Origin: Thermodesulfovibrionia bacterium
Lineage (GTDB): Bacteria; Nitrospirota; Thermodesulfovibrionia; UBA6902
Direction: 5' to 3'
NCBI GenBank assembly: GCA_945788685.1
Contig: CALZMZ010000002.1
Location: 1 to 55,742 of the forward strand
Length of the DNA: 55,742 nt
Under the pieces are notes generated by a model. It saw only the letters and a program-made list of their open reading frames with translations, was not told where the DNA came from and made no database searches. A program made the translations under genes and the position numbers. Shown one piece after another: positions 1,390 through 55,742 of the stretch. Each line of letters begins with the position of its first letter. Positions within the stretch are counted from its first letter, which is position 1.

Positions 1390-1502
1390 CATACCCCCTT
1401 TTAATTTAATATCCCCATTGTCAGCCAGAGTTGAGAATGTTATTATTCTCAATAACCAGCATCGATTACCGAACATAACAAAAATCTTTCAGGAGGTATG
1501 TA

Positions 1503-2627
1503 ATGGCTGATTTATTTGATAAAACTAAAATTAAGGAAATGACTTTGCAGAACCGTCTTGTGCGATCAGCTACATGGGAAGGCATGTGCGATAATGACGG
1601 TAGACCGACAGAAAAACTGATTAACTGTTACCGTGATCTTGCAAAGGGCGGTGTCGGTCTGATAATGACAGGCTATACGTTTGTCAGGCCTGAAGGTAAG
1701 CAGCTTCCGGGGAAGATGGGCATTCATACCGATGAATTTGCAGATGAGATGATATCCATGACAAAAGCTGTCCATGACTCAGGGGGAAAGATATGTATTC
1801 AGCTTGTGCATGCAGGTGGACAGACAGACTCACGTAATGCAGGCAGGCAGCCCTTTGCTCCATCAGCTGTTCAGACAGAACAGTTTCCTGAAATGCCCCG
1901 GGAACTGTCCAAAGACGATATTACAGAAATTGTTACTGCATTTGGTGATGCAGCAAGACGGGCTAAATCTTATGACTTTGATGCTGTCCAGCTTCACGGC
2001 GCGCATGGTTATCTGATTAATCAGTTTCTGTCACCTCATTTAAACAAAAGAACAGATGAATACGGCGGAAGTATTGAAAACCGGTGCCGCTTTCTTCTAG
2101 AGGTTTATCGTACAGTACGGGAAGCAGTTGGAAATGATTATCCTGTCATGATAAAGCTGACCGGGACGGATTTCCTGGATGGGGGTCTAAGCAATGAAGA
2201 GGCTGTATTTGCTGCAAAGAAGCTGTCTGATGAGGGAGTGGATGCTATAGAAGTCAGCGGAGGAACACCGGCATCCGGTGAGCAAAGCCCTGCCCGCACC
2301 AAGATCAACAGGCCGGAGAAGGAAGCTTATCATCTTGAACTTGCAAAGAATATTAAAAAAGCGGTTGACTGTCCTGTAATGGTTGTTGGCGGCTTCAGGA
2401 GTTTTGAAATTGCTGACAGGATTATAAATGAGGACGCTATGGATTATATATCGATGTCCCGTCCATTTATAAGAGAGCATGACCTGGCCAATCGCTGGAA
2501 GCGCGGTGACACAGCGCCTGCAAAGTGTATCTCCTGCAACAGCTGTTTTTTACCGGGTATAAAAGAGGGCGGGATTTATTGTGTAGTGGAAAAAAAGCTG
2601 AAGGAGAAAAAGCAGGAGAGTTCCTGA
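1503..2627 (+). CDS. Old-Yellow-Enzyme-family NADH:flavin oxidoreductase with C-terminal Cys cluster
   Basis: OYE TIM-barrel motifs are present (HGAHGYLINQFLSP, RTDEYGGS). The C-terminus has CISCNSC...C, resembling the Fe-S motif of FadH-type enzymes, but no reductase domain follows. AGGAGG RBS. Confidence 0.88.
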   Translation: MADLFDKTKIKEMTLQNRLVRSATWEGMCDNDGRPTEKLINCYRDLAKGGVGLIMTGYTFVRPEGKQLPGKMGIHTDEFADEMISMTKAVHDSGGKICIQLVHAGGQTDSRNAGRQPFAPSAVQTEQFPEMPRELSKDDITEIVTAFGDAARRAKSYDFDAVQLHGAHGYLINQFLSPHLNKRTDEYGGSIENRCRFLLEVYRTVREAVGNDYPVMIKLTGTDFLDGGLSNEEAVFAAKKLSDEGVDAIEVSGGTPASGEQSPARTKINRPEKEAYHLELAKNIKKAVDCPVMVVGGFRSFEIADRIINEDAMDYISMSRPFIREHDLANRWKRGDTAPAKCISCNSCFLPGIKEGGIYCVVEKKLKEKKQESS

Positions 2628-3961: not shown

Positions 3962-4714
3962 TTACATACCCGGACCTTTCTTCAAATGCATCAGAAACTC
4001 AACATTGCCTTTAGGACCCTTTACAGGAGATGTTGCTGATCCCAGGACTTCAAGTCCCATGGATTCTGACCCGGCCTTTATTTTTTCCATGACCTTCATG
4101 TGAATACTCTCTTCCCTCACCACTCCTCCCTTGCCCACATCTTTTCTCCCAGCTTCAAACTGGGGTTTGATTAAGGCCACGATTGACCCTGCAGGTTTTA
4201 AGAATTCCAAAACCTTTGGGATGACTTTCAGAAGAGATATAAAGGAAACATCGATCACTGCAATATCTATTGTATCCTGTACAGAATCATTTTCAATGTA
4301 CCGTATGTTGGTTTTTTCCAGCACTGTAACCCTGCTGTCATTCCTGAGTTTCAGGTCAATCTGGCCATAACCGACATCAACAGCATAAACTTTAACAGCT
4401 CCGTTCTGTAACAGGCAGTCTGTAAAGCCGCCAGTAGATGCACCCACATCCATTGCCACTTTGTTTGATACATCTATATCAAACTCTTTTAATGCATGCT
4501 CAAGCTTCAGGCCGCCACGGCTAACATAGGGCATTTTATGCGCCAGGGTAAGTTCATCATCAGGCCTTACCTGTGCTCCTGCCTTGTCAACAATAATACC
4601 GTTGACTGAAACACTGCCTTCAAGGATCAGGGCCTTTGCCTTTTCCCTGCTTGCAACAAGGCCTTTATCAAAGAGCATCCTGTCCAGACGCTCTTTTTTT
4701 AATGGTGTAGCCAT
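3962..4714 (-). CDS. tlyA: TlyA-family rRNA 2'-O-methyltransferase (S4 domain + FtsJ-like MTase)
   Basis: N-terminal S4 RNA-binding segment (RLDRMLFDKGLVASREKAKALI) and SAM motif DVGASTGGFTD. Conserved position downstream of dxs. Confidence 0.9.
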   Translation of the reverse strand: MATPLKKERLDRMLFDKGLVASREKAKALILEGSVSVNGIIVDKAGAQVRPDDELTLAHKMPYVSRGGLKLEHALKEFDIDVSNKVAMDVGASTGGFTDCLLQNGAVKVYAVDVGYGQIDLKLRNDSRVTVLEKTNIRYIENDSVQDTIDIAVIDVSFISLLKVIPKVLEFLKPAGSIVALIKPQFEAGRKDVGKGGVVREESIHMKVMEKIKAGSESMGLEVLGSATSPVKGPKGNVEFLMHLKKGPGM

Positions 4715-4732
4715 GGAATTTAAGATATGAGG

Positions 4733-6634
4733 TCAGTTTTTATTCTTGATTACTTCCGGAGCGGCTGCTTTTCTGTCAACCAGAGTGAGGGCTTCTCTGG
4801 CTATGCCTTCTGCATCAATGCCGTATTTTTTCCTTAAAAGCTTCTGGGGACCCTGTTCTATAAAACTGTCCGGCAGGCCGAGTATTTTTATCTTAAGTCC
4901 TTCTAAACCGGCTTTGGTCAACTCCTCCAGTACTGCACTACCAAAACCACCGGACACTGCATTTTCTTCCACCGTTATAATCCTTTTGATTTGATCTGCA
5001 TAACCGTAGATCAGGTCCATATCAAGGGGTTTGACAAAGCGGGCATTAATCACCGTTGCACCTATCCCTGCATCACTGATAAATTTTGCTGCTTCAAGTG
5101 CCGGGAGCACTGTACTGCCTATGGCAATGATCAATACATCCTTTCCCTCGTTAACGACTTCTCCATTGCCAAGTGGTATCGTTTTGATATCGCTGCCTTC
5201 GTCGCTGTCCACAACAGAGGCCCTCGGATATCTGATTGCTATGGGACCGTTATGATGTACAGCGGTCTTCAGCATGCACCTGAACTCGTATGCATCTTTT
5301 GGGGCCATAACAACGAGATTGGGGATATGTCTCAGGTATGAAAGGTCAAATGTCCCGTTGTGTGTAGGTCCGTCATCTCCCACTATGCCTGCTCTGTCTA
5401 TTGCGAATACAACAGGCAGTTTCTGAAGACAGACATCATGAATGATCTCATCATACGATCTCTGAAGAAACGTTGAATAGATTGCCACGACCGGTTTTAC
5501 TCCTCTGGTGGCAAGACCTGCGGCAAATGTTGTTGCATGGGGCTCTGCAATTCCGACATCATAAAACTTTTTTGGAAATGTCCTGACAAACTCTGAGAGC
5601 CCGGTGCCTTCGGTCATGGCAGCGGTGATGGCAACAATCCTGCTGTCTTCCTTTGCGAGTTCCGTGAGACAGTTGCCGAATATCTCACTGTATGACTTCG
5701 TAGGTTTTGAAGGTAAGGAACCGGTTTCTATATCAAAAGGTCCGACACCGTGAAAGATGTTCGGATTTTTCTCTGCGGGTTCATACCCTTTGCCTTTCTT
5801 GGTGATGGTGTGAATCAAGACAGGTGACGGGAAATCCCTGAACCGCTGCAGAGTTTCGATAAGTATATCGATTTTATGACCGTCAACCGGACCGACATAT
5901 TCAAACCCCAGTTCTTCAAAGAGCAGTCCGGGCACAATAAAACCCTTTACGGTCTCCTCTGTCTTTTTTGCGATTTTCAGGACAGGCTCACCCACCGATG
6001 GGATTCTCTCAAGAAGATGTTTGGTTTCTTTCTTGAACTTTGTATAAAGATCACCCATAAGCATCCTCCGTAAATAGGCTGACAGGGCGCCCACGTTAGG
6101 AGAGATGGACATTTCATTATCATTCAGAATAACTATCAGGTCTTTCTTTAAATGCCCTACGTGATTGAGCCCCTCAAAGGCAAGTCCGGCGGTCATTGCA
6201 CCGTCACCGATAACAGCGATCGACTTAAAATCCTCTTTCATCTGATCTCTTCCCTCAAGTATGCCAAAAGCGGCAGAGATCGAGGTTGAGCTGTGACCGG
6301 TTCCGAATGAGTCATGGGGGCTTTCTGACATCTTTGGAAAACCTGACAGTCCTTTATGTTTTCTTATCGTTGAAAACCTGTCATACCTGCCTGTCAAAAG
6401 CTTATGGGCATAAGCCTGGTGGCCGACGTCCCAGATGATTTTATCTTTAGGTGAGTCAAAAACATAATGAAGCGCTAAAGTAAGATCGATAGAGCCAAGA
6501 TTTGAGGCAAGATGCCCGCCGTTGGTTGCAACGGTCTCGATGACTATTTCACGCATCTCCTCTGCCAGTTGTTTTAAGTCATCAATTGTCAGATCTTTAA
6601 TGTCCTCAGGACTTTTTATATTTTCTATCTTCAT
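4733..6634 (-). CDS. dxs: 1-deoxy-D-xylulose-5-phosphate synthase
   Basis: 633 aa. Motifs present: GGHLASNLG, DVGHQAY, GDGAMTAG (ThDP) and a transketolase-like C-terminus. ispA-dxs synteny. Confidence 0.97.
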   Translation of the reverse strand: MKIENIKSPEDIKDLTIDDLKQLAEEMREIVIETVATNGGHLASNLGSIDLTLALHYVFDSPKDKIIWDVGHQAYAHKLLTGRYDRFSTIRKHKGLSGFPKMSESPHDSFGTGHSSTSISAAFGILEGRDQMKEDFKSIAVIGDGAMTAGLAFEGLNHVGHLKKDLIVILNDNEMSISPNVGALSAYLRRMLMGDLYTKFKKETKHLLERIPSVGEPVLKIAKKTEETVKGFIVPGLLFEELGFEYVGPVDGHKIDILIETLQRFRDFPSPVLIHTITKKGKGYEPAEKNPNIFHGVGPFDIETGSLPSKPTKSYSEIFGNCLTELAKEDSRIVAITAAMTEGTGLSEFVRTFPKKFYDVGIAEPHATTFAAGLATRGVKPVVAIYSTFLQRSYDEIIHDVCLQKLPVVFAIDRAGIVGDDGPTHNGTFDLSYLRHIPNLVVMAPKDAYEFRCMLKTAVHHNGPIAIRYPRASVVDSDEGSDIKTIPLGNGEVVNEGKDVLIIAIGSTVLPALEAAKFISDAGIGATVINARFVKPLDMDLIYGYADQIKRIITVEENAVSGGFGSAVLEELTKAGLEGLKIKILGLPDSFIEQGPQKLLRKKYGIDAEGIAREALTLVDRKAAAPEVIKNKN

Positions 6635-10293: not shown

Positions 10294-11315
10294 AACTGCT
10301 TGTTACCGGTGGTGCAGGGTTTATTGCATCCAACTATATAAGACATGTACTTCATACGTATCCGGATTATCAGGTGATTAATCTGGACAGCCTTACCTAT
10401 GCCGGAAATCTCGAAAACCTGAAAGATGTAGAAGATTCAGAAAGATATACCTTTATGAAGCGTGATATCTGTGACAGCCATGTTGCAGATGGTCTTGAGT
10501 TTGATGCGATCCTGAATTTTGCTGCTGAAAGTCATGTTGACAGGAGCATTCTTGATGCACAGCCTTTCCTTCAGACCAACATAATGGGAACATACAATCT
10601 TCTGGAAGTCGCAAGGAAGAGGAACTGCACTTTTTTACATGTATCAACTGATGAAGTCTATGGATCGATTGAAGATGGATTCTTTAATGAAGAATCTCCT
10701 TTAATGCCTAACAGTCCTTATGCTGCAAGTAAGGCCTCGTCTGATATGCTTGTCAGGGCATATGTTGAAACTCATAAGATCAATGCCATGATCACAAGAT
10801 GTTCCAACAATTACGGGCCTTATCAGTTCCCTGAAAAACTTATTCCGCTTGTTATACTTAATGCCATAAACAGCAGGCCCATTCCGGTTTACGGTGACGG
10901 CATGAATGTAAGGGACTGGATCCATGTAGTTGACCACTGCAAGGCCGTAGACACTGTTCTTCATAAAGGGACATCCGGACGTGTTTACAATATAGGGTCC
11001 AGGAATGAACAGCCCAATATCGATCTCATTAAAAAAATATTGTCAAAAACTGCTGAAAAGCTGGATCTTGATGAAAATAAACTTATGGGCCTGATCAATT
11101 TTGTTGAGGACAGAAAAGGCCATGACAGGAGATATGCCATAAATCCTTTAATGATAGAGAAGGATCTGGGATGGAAACCTGAGATGACTTTTGACGAAGG
11201 AATAGAAAAGACGATAGAGTGGTATACGACCAATAATCAGTGGTGGGGCCGGATCATTTCAGGTGAATATATCAAGTACTATAATCTGCAATATGGGGAA
11301 AGGCTTGATACGTGA
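10290..11315 (+). CDS. rmlB: dTDP-glucose 4,6-dehydratase
   Basis: GGAGFIASN Rossmann motif, STDEVYG and the YAASKA catalytic motif. 341 aa. Confidence 0.95.
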   Translation: MKLLVTGGAGFIASNYIRHVLHTYPDYQVINLDSLTYAGNLENLKDVEDSERYTFMKRDICDSHVADGLEFDAILNFAAESHVDRSILDAQPFLQTNIMGTYNLLEVARKRNCTFLHVSTDEVYGSIEDGFFNEESPLMPNSPYAASKASSDMLVRAYVETHKINAMITRCSNNYGPYQFPEKLIPLVILNAINSRPIPVYGDGMNVRDWIHVVDHCKAVDTVLHKGTSGRVYNIGSRNEQPNIDLIKKILSKTAEKLDLDENKLMGLINFVEDRKGHDRRYAINPLMIEKDLGWKPEMTFDEGIEKTIEWYTTNNQWWGRIISGEYIKYYNLQYGERLDT

Positions 11316-24128: not shown

Positions 24129-26621
24129 GTGGAAGAGAAATATAAAGCGCGTAACATAGAAGAGAAATGGCAGGAATACTGGGACGGAAAGGGACTGTTT
24201 TCAGTAGATGAAAAAGTTGATCTGCCCAAATTTTACTGCCTTGAGATGTTTCCTTATCCATCAGGAAAAATCCATATGGGCCATGTGCGGAACTATGTGA
24301 TAGGTGATGTGATCACCCGGTATAAGAAAATGTGCGGATTCAACGTACTTCATCCAATGGGTTGGGACGCCTTTGGCATGCCTGCGGAAAACGCGGCCAT
24401 TAAACATGGTCTGCACCCGTCAAAATGGACTTATGACAATATAGATTACATGAGGCAGCAGCTAAAGAAGCTGGGCCTTGGTTATGACTGGCAGAGAGAG
24501 GTTGCAACCTGCAACCCCGGGTATTACCGATGGAACCAGTGGTTTTTTATTAAAATGCTTGAAAAGGGCCTGGCTTATAAAAAATCATCCTCTGTAAACT
24601 GGTGCCCGTCATGCGAAACCGTGCTGGCCAATGAACAGGTCGTTGATGACGGATGCTGGAGATGTGACACTGCTGTGACTCAGAAAGAGCTTGAGCAATG
24701 GTTTTTCAGGATAACTGATTACGCGGAAGAACTGCTCAAGGATGCAGACACGTTGACAGGCTGGCCTGAAAAAGTCGTTACCATGCAGCGCAACTGGATC
24801 GGTCGCAGCGAAGGAGTGGAAGTTGATTTTAAAATTTCAGGTACAGATAAAAATATGCGTATTTTTACCACGAGGCAGGACACGCTTTATGGCGCAACGT
24901 TTATGAGTATTGCCAGGACACATCCGCTGGTGACCGATCTTGTAAAGGATGAGACGATACTGAAGGCTATCGGATCACTTTCTGATGACCCTGAAGAAAA
25001 AGAAGGTGTCTTTACAGGATTTCATGCTGTTAACCCGCTTACCGGGAAAGAGATACCGATTTATGTTGCCAATTTTGTCTTAATGGAGTATGGAACGGGC
25101 GCTGTAATGGCAGTCCCTGCACATGACCAGAGGGATTTTGAATTTGCAAAGAAATATGATTTACCAATTGAGGTTGTTATCGTTCCTGATGATGCATCTG
25201 CAGAGGATGAAGGGGCAGGGCTTGTCCCTGCCCGTCTTCCTGTTCAAGGGCAGGGACAAGCCCTGCCCCTGCAGCAGGCGTTTGAAAACTATGGTGTTCT
25301 GGTGGAATCAGCTCAATTCTCGGGCCTTTCCAGCAAAGAGGCGAGAGTGGAGATCGCTGATTACCTTGAAAAAGAAGGCATGGGTAAAAAGGTTGTAAAT
25401 TATAAGCTCAGGGACTGGGGGATCTCACGTCAGAGGTACTGGGGTACTCCGATACCTGTTGTCTATTGTCAGTCCTGTGGAACTGTACCGGTACCGGAGA
25501 AAGACCTGCCTGTTATACTCCCTGAAAATGCGGTCCTGACCGGCGCCGGCTCATCGCCTCTGGCAGAGCTTAAGGAATTTGTTGAAACGGTCTGTCCAAA
25601 ATGCGGAAAACAGGCCAGAAGAGACACAGACACGATGGATACGTTTGTTGATTCTTCATGGTATTTTCTCAGATACTGCTCTCCCAGGTCTGAGACCGGC
25701 CCTGTTGATTCCCAGGCTGTTGATTACTGGATGGCAGTTGACCAGTACATCGGCGGAATCGAACATGCTGTTCTTCATCTCCTTTATTCCAGGTTTTTTA
25801 CAAAGGTGGTCAGGGACATAGGCCTGGCCCGGATTGATGAACCTTTCAAAAGCCTTCTGACGCAGGGAATGGTCATAAAGGACGGTGCCAAGATGTCCAA
25901 GTCAAAAGGCAACGTTGTTGACCCTGATTTTCTGGTCAATAAATACGGTACAGATACTGTAAGGATATTCTGCATGTTTGCAGCCCCGCCTGAAAGGGAC
26001 CTTGAGTGGTCGGACCAGGGAGTTGACGGAGCTTACAGGTTTTTAAACCGTATTTGGACATTTGTTTACAAACATCTTGATGTGCTCAGTACTGATATCT
26101 CTCATGAGTTAAATGACATATCCGGGCTGTCACCATCTGCTTCACAGTTATTACGTAAGACGCATCAAACGATAAAAAAGGTCACTACAAGCATAGAACG
26201 TGATTATCATTTCAATACATCCATAGCAGCTCTGATGGAACTGATCAATGAAATGCTGTCCTTTAACTCATCAGATAATGAAGATGTTCTCAGGTTCAGT
26301 GTCCGGCAGATGATACTTCTGATATCCCCGTTTGCTCCGCATGTTTCCGAAGAGCTGTGGAAAGAGACCGCGGGAAAGGGAGGTGTTTTTGATCAGGCCT
26401 GGCCGGAATGGAATGAAGACATTGCAAAGGAGGACGAGATAGAACTGGTAGTGCAGGTAAACAGCAAAGTCAGGGCAAAGATGAAGATCCCTGCAGGTAT
26501 GGATGATGACTCTATTAAGGAAAAGGCATTTGCTGACGCAAAAGTGCAGGAGTATATACAGGACAAACCTCTCAAAAAGGTGATTGTTGTCAAGAGTAAA
26601 CTGGTCAATATTGTAATATAA
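24129..26621 (+). CDS. leuS: Leucyl-tRNA synthetase
   Basis: 830 aa. Class I HMGH and KMSKS motifs and a CP1 editing domain. GTG start. leuS-lptE-holA synteny. Confidence 0.97.
25212..25269. repeat. 58-nt GC-rich nested palindrome inserted in frame in leuS
   Basis: GGGGCAGGGCTTGTCCCTGCCC (25212-25233) is the exact reverse complement of GGGCAGGGACAAGCCCTGCCCC (25248-25269). Each arm is itself a hairpin. 40 of 58 nt are G/C in an AT-rich gene. Confidence 0.9.
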
Positions 26622-30278: not shown

Positions 30279-30386
30279 CTCCCCCCTTGGGAAAGGCCGG
30301 TACGACTCGATTCCGAGGGATTAAGGGGGTTATTAAAAAATTATTCATTAATAACTCCCCTGCCCCCTCTTTACCAAAGAGGGGAA
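30279..30386. repeat. GC-rich dispersed palindromic repeat (CCCCCCTTGG...GGTACGACTCGATTCCGA...TTAAGGGGG; CCCCCTCTTTACCAAAGAGGGG)
   Basis: Shares the 18-mer GGTACGA(C/G)TCGATTCCGA and CCCCTTAAT/ATTAAGGGG arms with 54435..54550. Confidence 0.7.
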
Positions 30387-54629: not shown

Positions 54630-55085
54630 ATGAATATTTCTGTTATAGGCGCGGGTACATGCGATAAGGACACGTATGCAATCGCTGAACATATCGGCAA
54701 GCTCATAGCACATAAAGGCGCTGTCCTTGTCACAGGCGGTCTGGGCGGTGTTATGGAAGCAGCTTCAAAAGGTGCCAAAGAGACAGGTGGAACGGTTATA
54801 GGATTACTCCCGGGATTCAGTAAAAAAGATGCAAATGCCTATGTAACCATTCCGGTAATCACAGGACTCAGTCATGCAAGGAACGTTATAGTTGTAAGAT
54901 CAGCAGATGCTGTTATTGCTGTAGCTGGGGAATATGGGACACTTTCAGAAATAGCCATTGCATTAAAGCTTGGCAAGCCTGTCATCGGCCTTAATACATG
55001 GGAAAATATCGAAGGTGTAGTGAAAGCAGATAATGCCGATGATGCGGTGGCCAGGGCATTTGAATTGGCGGGGAAATCAATGTAG
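54630..55085 (+). CDS. TIGR00725/LOG-like Rossmann-fold protein
   Basis: VTGGLGGVMEAASKGA and AGEYGTLSEIAIAL motifs. 151 aa. Confidence 0.78.
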   Translation: MNISVIGAGTCDKDTYAIAEHIGKLIAHKGAVLVTGGLGGVMEAASKGAKETGGTVIGLLPGFSKKDANAYVTIPVITGLSHARNVIVVRSADAVIAVAGEYGTLSEIAIALKLGKPVIGLNTWENIEGVVKADNADDAVARAFELAGKSM

Positions 55086-55107
55086 GGGCATGGCGCGCCA
55101 TGCCCCT
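55084..55107. terminator. Perfect 24-nt GC-rich palindrome between convergent genes
   Basis: AGGGGCATGGCG/CGCCATGCCCCT. The stem sequence resembles the arms of the leuS insert (GGGGCAGGG...CCCTGCCCC). Confidence 0.6.
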
Positions 55108-55114
55108 CCTGTAT

Positions 55115-55742
55115 CTAATTACCTGATTGTTTCTGCAGATACTTATAGAAATCACCTTTTGTGGAGAGTATCAGCCAGTCTTTTTCAGACATGGTCGTCT
55201 TGTAGGTCTCCATGGTTTTTATAAAATTATAAAACTCCCGTGACTCGGGGCTCTGGTTATAGGCCTTCGCATAAATCGTGGTTGCCTCGGCATCAGCCTT
55301 ACCTACTATCTCCTGTGCTGTTTTATAGGCACCGGACTGGATCTTTTTCAGCTCCCTCTCCTTGTCACCGAGAATTTTGGAAGCCCCTCCCTGTCCTTCA
55401 GAACGGAATTTGTCTGCTATCCTCTTACGTTCAGTAATCATTCGCTCGTAAATCTTTTTCTGAACTTCCTCAACATAATTGATTCTTTTCAGCCTCAGAT
55501 CAAGCAGCTCTATGCCCAGTTCAAGGGTGCGGGGAGCTGCATTGGTTATTATGGACCTTGTCAGTACTTCTCTTCCAAATTTTATTTGTTGCAATGTAGC
55601 TGCAATCTCTCCCGCGACCAGCTCATCAGGTAAATTAGGAGTCCTGTTTGTAGAACGTACAATCTCAACAAGCAGGTGTTTGGCAATCGCGTTTCTTGTT
55701 TCACCGTCCAGAATATCATCAAGTCTGGACTGGGCGCCCCTT
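55115..55742 (-). CDS. hflC: HflC-like SPFH/band-7 protease modulator (5' end outside window)
   Basis: The frame stays open to the window edge. The C-terminal part reads YERMITERKRIADKFRSEGQG...AEATTIYAKAYN...EFYNFIKTMETYK, typical of HflC. Confidence 0.82.
   Translation of the reverse strand, partial: RGAQSRLDDILDGETRNAIAKHLLVEIVRSTNRTPNLPDELVAGEIAATLQQIKFGREVLTRSIITNAAPRTLELGIELLDLRLKRINYVEEVQKKIYERMITERKRIADKFRSEGQGGASKILGDKERELKKIQSGAYKTAQEIVGKADAEATTIYAKAYNQSPESREFYNFIKTMETYKTTMSEKDWLILSTKGDFYKYLQKQSGN

Follow-up and report, generated by a model that had tools for sequence, protein, structure and literature searches.

Why does an essential tRNA synthetase gene carry a GC-rich nested palindrome in the middle of its coding sequence, and where did that palindrome come from? 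The question is raised by leuS, the leucyl-tRNA synthetase gene of a Thermodesulfovibrionia bacterium (Nitrospirota), on positions 1 to 55,742 of contig CALZMZ010000002.1 (assembly GCA_945788685.1); this whole 55.7-kb stretch of DNA is referred to here as the window. We propose, with a probability of about 0.8, that the element is a head-to-head (HH) dimer of GTAG-tagged repetitive extragenic palindromes (REPs), also called a REPIN, that entered leuS in the ancestor of a subclade and was tolerated as a loop of the CP1 editing domain. GTAG-tagged REPs, their HH dimers and the REP-associated tyrosine transposases (RAYTs, or TnpA_REP) have been described in several studies (Nunvar 2010, PMC2817692; Bertels & Rainey 2011, PMC3116915; Di Nocera 2013, PMC3733652; Corneloup 2021, PMC8266576). 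REPINs are non-autonomous single-stranded DNA elements, whose hairpins are recognised by RAYTs, enzymes of the IS200/IS605-type HUH group, and cut beside the GTAG guide.

The arms GGGGCAGGGCTTGTCCCTGCCC (25212-25233) and GGGCAGGGACAAGCCCTGCCCC (25248-25269) are exact reverse complements with 14 nt between them, and the inverted repeat reaches 26 nt at 96% identity over the span 25208-25273. Each arm also folds on itself into a perfect 8-bp stem with a 5-nt loop, a short GC-rich stem-loop within the range of REPs (stems of 5-13 bp, loops of 2-20 nt). By direct count, 40 of the 58 nt of the element (69%) are G or C, against 41.8% for the window. On the complementary arms, their hairpins, the G/C count of the element and its in-frame position within leuS, the preliminary description of this DNA proved accurate. 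Chance origin of the hairpin pair is excluded, because dinucleotide shuffles yield only 0.08 matches to the hairpin pattern with three mismatches permitted. An 82-nt stretch forms one long hairpin, with a folding energy of -58.9 kcal/mol for the RNA (z -6.45) and -34.5 for the DNA (z -7.8).

Arm pairing was judged by direct counts of complementarity within and between arms. The two units are complementary at 21 of 21 positions across the 14-nt spacer and carry their heads outward (Table 1), which is the arrangement of an HH dimer, the form in which GTAG REPs mostly occur (PMC3733652). On the minus strand, the AG that comes after the right head reads as a CT on the 5' side of that head. The window copy reads as a decayed member of a GTAG-tagged family, because most leuS orthologues and about 95% of family copies keep GTAG. 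It is probably a poor RAYT substrate today, an immobilised resident copy, because both GTAG heads have been lost; RAYTs cleave at a CT beside the REP, mutations at position 2 of GTAG lower or nearly abolish cleavage, and the position-2 mutant GCAG is barely cleaved in the S. maltophilia system (PMC8266576). The minus-strand head of the window copy is likewise GCAG.

Table 1. Coordinates of leuS, of the parts of its palindromic element and of a second GTAG hairpin in the window (L and P numbers here and in the text denote loci and proteins used for comparison)
Feature	Position	Strand	Details
leuS (leucyl-tRNA synthetase), 830 aa, intact	24129..26621	+	Open reading frame (ORF) and LeuS homology
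Left head, degenerate GAAG	25209..25212	+	T->A at position 2; GTAG in L001, L002, L207, L208, L209, L127
REP unit 1, GGGCAGGG-CTTGT-CCCTGCCC	25213..25233	+	8-bp stem, 5-nt loop; encodes (G)AGLVPA
Spacer GTCTTCCTGTTCAA, 14 nt	25234..25247	+	Inverted with respect to every related leuS copy
REP unit 2, inverted, GGGCAGGG-ACAAG-CCCTGCCC	25248..25268	+	Encodes GQGQALP; 21/21 complementary to unit 1
Right head, degenerate CTGC	25269..25272	+	CTAC in relatives (= GTAG on the minus strand)
Single GTAG hairpin GTAG-GGGCATGGC-GCGC-CATGCCCC (GTAGGGGCATGGCGCGCCATGCCCC)	55082..55107	+	Stem differs from the leuS element; TAG = stop of ORF 54630-55085

Other classes of element were considered and rejected. 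A miniature inverted-repeat transposable element with target-site duplication would require terminal inverted repeats or a duplication outside the REP arms, and there are none; an intrinsic terminator is excluded since no T-run follows the hairpin and the element lies within an intact ORF. Rfam gave no match at gathering score, only look-alikes of eukaryotic microRNA precursors at 18-35 bits against cutoffs of 48-100.

The stem belongs to a family that is widespread in other genomes. A pattern scan with GGGGCAGGNCNTGTNCCTGCCC of one genome per species (596 Gb), in which about 4 chance matches are expected by calculation (a few tens if all genomes were GC-rich), gave more than 120 loci, with 159 copies, among the matches listed; the counts of family copies in reference genomes refer to these matches. 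GTA, which is absent from the pattern, precedes 144 of the 159 copies, and three stem variants account for 145 of them (GGC/GCC 62, GGG/CCC 47 and GGT/GCC 36); REP unit 1 of the window, together with the preceding G, is identical to 47 copies in other genomes. An inverted partner ending in CCCTAC lies within 130 nt of 63 of the 159 copies (40%), frequently differing in its stem while sharing the CTTGT/ACAAG loop, and the resulting dimers measure 53-134 nt from GTAG to CTAC (median 75), a range that includes the 64 nt of the leuS dimer. Positions -5 and -4 are C and T in 71 and 85 of 157 copies, respectively, an enrichment that fits the CT cleavage site of RAYTs (PMC8266576). The host phyla are mainly Acidobacteriota, Chloroflexota and Poribacteria, with some Proteobacteria and metagenome-assembled genomes (MAGs) of Nitrospirota; the Nitrospirota MAGs among the matches listed are L010, L017 and L047, which alone in that phylum show intergenic copies, that of L010 among them.

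A link between this family and a RAYT is found in L052, a Pyrinomonadaceae MAG. The product of its ORF 1415-1969 (minus strand) is a Pfam Y1_Tnp match and scores 105 bits, above the cutoff of 80, against NF047646 REP_Tyr_transpos; GTAGGGGCAGGGCTTGTCCCTGCCC immediately precedes this ORF and two inverted copies overlap its 3' end. The C-terminus of this RAYT continues into its own flanking REPs. A strict HUH...Y..NP regular expression for RAYTs found none and a relaxed one found two. In L109, a RAYT-like ORF (4515-5132, plus strand) is interrupted by two in-frame REP copies between the HUH and Tyr motifs.

The family also turns up in other settings. Copies lie in frame in genes of other phyla (L092, L013, L049, L061), encoding HsdM (its N6_Mtase domain cut in two), an ABC permease, a PD-(D/E)XK protein and a Ser/Thr kinase domain. 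Tandem arrays of REPs in the same orientation, with 71-nt and 28-nt periods, are present in L034, L051, L107 (Caldilineaceae) and L082 (Poribacteria); their interpretation as CRISPR arrays was rejected, since in L034, L051 and L082 the 'spacer' between REPs is itself repeated. Eighteen predicted IMG/VR viral contigs (L211-L228) contain 26 copies, of which 23 have the GTA prefix, with at most five on one contig (L214); these contigs may have carried the family from phylum to phylum, or they may be host DNA included in prophage calls.

The family shares with known GTAG REP/REPIN systems an 8-bp stem and 5-nt loop after GTAG (in family copies), inverted units with GTAG outward around a short spacer, multiple copies, heterodimers, a RAYT flanked by inverted copies (L052), a CT 5' of GTAG and occasional in-frame intragenic dimers of 20-30 aa. 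The leuS copy is not extragenic, lying as it does within a gene; GTAG and CGTC REPs are, as a documented minority, also found inside ORFs, tRNA synthetase genes included, where dimers encode 20-30 aa (PMC3733652). Additional file 3 of Di Nocera (2013) contains in-frame REP singles or dimers in glycyl- and isoleucyl-tRNA synthetase genes, and the VGAHPGA-type peptides reported there start with V-G-A from GTAGGGGC (PMC3733652). Those cases differ from the present one in gene, site and family, some being CGTC-tagged, and LeuS is not among them, the sole 'leucyl' match being isoleucyl. Intragenic REP dimers, in tRNA synthetase genes among others, have thus been known since 2013, and the leuS element is a further case. 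Unlike known REP systems, it has a host phylum (Nitrospirota/Thermodesulfovibrionia) and a stem family neither of which was found in the 2013 catalogue as far as searched, and, in the window copy, degenerate heads.

A comparison with Rickettsia palindromic elements (RPEs), made in the preliminary description, holds for behaviour and fails for family. As in RPEs, a palindromic repeat is read in frame in a still-functional gene and adds a surface loop. Membership was rejected, since the leuS element has no CGTC end, the ends in its relatives are GTAG/CTAC and its LeuS kin are Nitrospirota and not Rickettsiales; host clade and sequence differ as well. The CGTC tag is a feature of RPE-4 and RPE-6, RPE-1 is longer, and RPEs have no associated transposase (Ogata et al. 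2000, as cited in PMC3733652).

Codon 362 of leuS begins at position 25212, and the element is read in frame. The gene product was scored against 8000 LeuS homologues, the top one being 89% identical, and contains the Pfam domains tRNA-synt_1, the LeuS editing domain PF13603 and Anticodon_1; its nearest LeuS are those of Nitrospirota/Thermodesulfovibrionia MAGs. The insert had been placed in a linker, but the site is a loop within the CP1 editing domain, directly after the AHDQRD motif, and not an inter-domain linker. The estimate that the segment is about 20 residues longer than usual agrees with the homologues: from HDQRD to RDW there are 99 aa in the window, against 80-81 aa in all but a few of the 80 LeuS loci listed from other phyla, a baseline of metagenome matches that are mainly distant homologues (52-74% identity). 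The insert adds approximately 19-20 residues to the loop, and in the alignment with 6q89, the best-matching solved LeuS (E 1e-266), 16 gap positions face it. The expected surface loop is also what the AlphaFold model (56 homologues) suggests: it predicts a folded domain from which the insert emerges as a disordered loop, because residues 357-379 have a predicted local distance difference test (pLDDT) score below 50 and no secondary structure between neighbouring blocks of 86-92.

This loop is hypervariable. Among the best 120 LeuS homologues (66-89% identity), whose named members are Nitrospirota/Thermodesulfovibrionia, the segment from AHDQRD to RDWG ranges from 80 to 117 aa. In some homologues it contains short in-frame tandem repeats, among them 7-nt CAGAACN units (TEHRTQS peptides) and 8-nt GCGCGGAA units (AEARKRGS peptides); such loops occur in L205, in L208 (approximately 11040-11098) and in proteins P0004, P0005, P0007, P0011, P0025 and P0043. 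Outside the loop, a further palindromic insert, GTAGGGGCAATTCATGAATTGCCCCTAC (VGAIH...), lies at approximately aa 527 in window numbering in L208 (11606-11633) and is also present in P0081, P0090 and P0095, and a PPFDKGGLGGF insert lies at approximately aa 277 of P0097.

If the 20 residues were a selected feature of LeuS, for instance an extra interaction loop, the DNA palindrome would be a by-product. The peptide GAGLVPA...GQGQALPLQ does recur in several LeuS; however, the arm codons do not vary even at their synonymous positions, although the codons beside them vary freely, the spacer peptide is wholly changed by inversion (LEQGG versus RLPVQ), and the loop, modelled as disordered, differs greatly between homologues both in length (80-117 aa) and in content, so that we consider a selected protein feature to be very improbable.

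REP-type inserts are present in 13 of 121 LeuS (the best 120 homologues and the window), and the DNA of nine of these 13 was compared: the window, L001, L002, L125, L004, L207, L208, L209 and L127. The reading frame of the REP dimer is the same in all nine, and the right end CCCCTAC(A/G)(A/G) adjoins, or lies no more than 1-2 codons from, the conserved GCx TTT (Ala-Phe) codons. Intact GTAG/CTAC heads are found in six of the eight relatives, the exceptions being L125 and L004. In L001, the closest REP-bearing relative (LeuS 89% identical), both arms are the same as those of the window and are flanked by GTAG and CTAC. The related leuS copies have in common a spacer motif, CAGGAAGAA or near variants, which is not a tail of the whole family, being found in only 4-6 of 157 copies elsewhere; because this spacer is common to the leuS copies and rare in the rest of the family, they appear to share ancestry. 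Nor is the element a recent strain-specific landing, because the same element, frame, right junction and homologous spacer are found in lineages with 73-77% LeuS identity. The alignment of relatives that had been envisaged for this locus shows an insert absent from most bacteria and from some close relatives, and lineage-shared rather than strain-specific.

The spacer of the window is the exception to this uniformity. In direct orientation it agrees with the L001 spacer at only 3 of 14 positions, but its reverse complement, TTGAACAGGAAGAC, agrees at 12 of 14 and contains the CAGGAAGA motif also seen in L004, L207, L209 and L002. Because the match to L001 appears only after reversal, the spacer, or the whole symmetric element, seems to have been inverted in the window lineage.

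De Bruijn graphs can break or mis-join at palindromes, and an assembly or chimera artefact had to be weighed. One unitig of an unrelated run, the 189-nt contig X1, does end within the element, at 25232; yet over its span (25232-25420) it agrees with the window with two mismatches and supports the spacer, arm 2 and the downstream gene. The same element recurs in independent assemblies from different samples and centres (L001; L002 and L003, from two samples; L125), and the leuS ORF remains intact and in frame. The source genome was found in no public run, the best run sharing 0.19 of sampled words (Logan contigs). An artefact is unlikely, because independent assemblies carry the same element and contig X1 covers 25232-25420; we put its chances at next to nil.

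The arms have changed far less than the gene around them, and this conservation bears on whether the hairpin itself is selected. Four-fold-site identity outside the loop is 0.51 between the window and L001 and 0.31 between the window and L002 (saturated), while the arms are identical at 44/44 and 42/44 positions. The two differences in L002 make its arm 2 exactly the canonical GGT/GCC variant, of which 36 family copies are listed; in L208 and L127, arm 2 is the canonical GGGCAACCACAAGGGTTGCCC partner (unit GGGCAACC-ACAAG-GGTTGCCC), and a GGGC(T)CCC unit is found in L207 and L209. In L004 (a loop C with a G) and L209 (21/21 between arms despite an internal mismatch in each) both arms have changed in pairs, and in the heterodimers L207, L208 and L127 arm-to-arm pairing falls to 13-14/21. 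We infer from this pattern concerted evolution of the arms and replacement of units from a REP pool, via gene conversion or RAYT strand transfer.

The same figures might be read as the mark of a cis-element selected in leuS, whether an mRNA structure for ribosome pausing, stability or processing or a DNA site for a host protein, its REP ancestry being incidental. Arms kept at 44/44 and 42/44 while four-fold sites stand at 0.51 and 0.31, covariation between arms in L004 and L209, the very stable fold (-58.9 kcal/mol) and the concentration of GTAG hairpins in leuS across the sampled clade loci would all suit such an element. Its absence from the closest relatives, L205 and L206, and from approximately 90% of the LeuS of the clade would not. 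Furthermore, no single structure is conserved, with heterodimers L207, L208 and L127 pairing at 13-14/21 and others keeping their pairing; the arms jump among canonical variants instead of drifting with compensation; the spacer of the window was inverted without loss of the gene; and Rfam offers no family, only sub-threshold microRNA-like matches. On balance a selected cis-element appears improbable.

Under the REPIN interpretation, the history of the locus may be sketched as follows. One REP dimer would have entered leuS in the ancestor of a Thermodesulfovibrionia subclade, landing in the one CP1 editing-domain loop with room for additional residues; the shared spacer motif suggests that this was a single old insertion. 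It would have survived because its frame is open (V-G-A-G-L-V-P-A ... G-Q-G-Q-A-L-P-L-Q) and its product could be extruded as a disordered surface loop, and persisted because imprecise deletion from an essential gene would kill. Later, canonical variants may have replaced individual REP arms, with other REPs of the genome as donors in gene conversion or in strand transfer by a RAYT; the arms would in this way stay close to the family consensus even as synonymous sites became saturated. The spacer of the window lineage could have been inverted when the two perfect inverted arms recombined or served in template switching, and alleles may have been shuffled between lineages through recombination. 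The earlier suggestion of a REP-like mobile hairpin tolerated in an essential gene is supported by the multi-copy GTAG family, the flanked RAYT of L052, the absence of the insert from most bacteria and its predicted disorder.

Several observations weigh against this account. The window copy itself does not begin with GTAG (it has GAAG, and GCAG on the minus strand). No second copy of its exact stem is present in the 55.7-kb window, and no RAYT motif was found there or in the sampled Nitrospirota loci. In approximately 216 kb of leuS-centred loci of the clade, convincing GTAG hairpins lie nearly all inside leuS, so that a REP pool for re-templating the arms remains hypothetical in clade genomes. 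In a neighbour-joining tree of LeuS computed with the loop removed, REP-positive proteins fall in at least five places; L205, the nearest relative of the window, lacks the element and has a 7-nt-repeat loop instead, and L206, the nearest relative of L001, lacks it too and has an ancestral-looking loop of 80 aa. With so patchy a tree, a single old insertion needs recombination or several losses. A sliding-window comparison reveals leuS as a mosaic, in which L001 is the closer match to the window around the loop (nt 810-1150) and L205 the closer one over the 3' half, which hints at allele exchange by intragenic recombination between lineages; this comparison is the sole evidence for recombination.

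The patchy distribution would also be explained by several independent REPIN insertions into one hot spot, for example beside native CTAC/CTxCAG Leu-Gln codons that mimic the GTAG guide on the other strand. Such a hot spot would also account for the REP-positive P0048, nested in a clade with a different hairpin in its loops (GEVFSPL), for arms that vary by lineage, for the unrelated palindromes gathered in the same LeuS loop of L128, L130, L150 and L210, for more REPs elsewhere in leuS (aa ~277 and ~527) and for the constant right junction, at which native relatives read L-Q/T-E-A-F. It leaves unexplained why the CAGGAAGAA spacer, which is no family-wide tail, is common across lineages and why all copies have one frame, and the target specificity it demands has no independent evidence. 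We regard repeated insertion as rather unlikely. Also unlikely is the idea that the leuS copy is no passive fossil, its arms being actively kept at consensus over times long enough to saturate synonymous sites, through RAYT-dependent re-templating or arm exchange at a heritable CP1 'safe-harbour', or that the hairpin has been co-opted for leuS translation or mRNA fate; were either true, the flip-flop of the spacer between orientations would be its visible side effect.

Two further hairpins of the window may be compared with the leuS element, which we continue to interpret as a REPIN. The palindrome at 55084-55107 had been considered its kin, reasonably so: it has the same GTAGGGGCA.GG start, its TAG is a stop codon and it stands between convergent genes. 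As a GTAG hairpin (Table 1) it sits between ORFs 54630-55085 (plus strand) and 55115-55594 (minus strand), a typical location for REPs. GTAG heads often provide a TAG stop codon (PMC3733652), and here too, as in Di Nocera (2013), the head gives the TAG stop to ORF 54630-55085. Another intergenic hairpin, CCCCTCTTTACCAAAGAGGGG, at 30364-30384 between murJ and a metallo-beta-lactamase (MBL)-fold gene, is similar to CCCCCCTTTACTAAAGGGGGG, a palindrome that L130 carries in frame, as PPLLKGG, in the corresponding loop of its LeuS; judging from this likeness, the two may belong to a second hairpin-repeat family.

What goes beyond the literature searched is, in part by inference, the orthologous persistence of the insert, the swapping of its arms, the inversion of its spacer and the repeated occurrence of palindromes and short tandem repeats in one LeuS loop; no description was found there of an old copy, orthologous across saturated synonymous sites, that has undergone arm swapping and spacer inversion. 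For an uncultivated phylum, the locus provides a documented example of an essential gene with a RAYT-type REP dimer in frame, and its orthologous copies let REP evolution be traced at one site, through arm replacement, concerted arm change, spacer inversion and head decay. The CP1 loop of LeuS is an insertion-tolerant site that is usable for tagging, and VGAGLVPA and GQxQxLPLQ peptides in MAG proteomes are to be taken as REP translations and not as protein motifs. Finally, a near-invariant 25-mer REP family across Acidobacteriota, Chloroflexota, Poribacteria, Nitrospirota, some Proteobacteria and viral contigs bears on how REPs and RAYTs spread.

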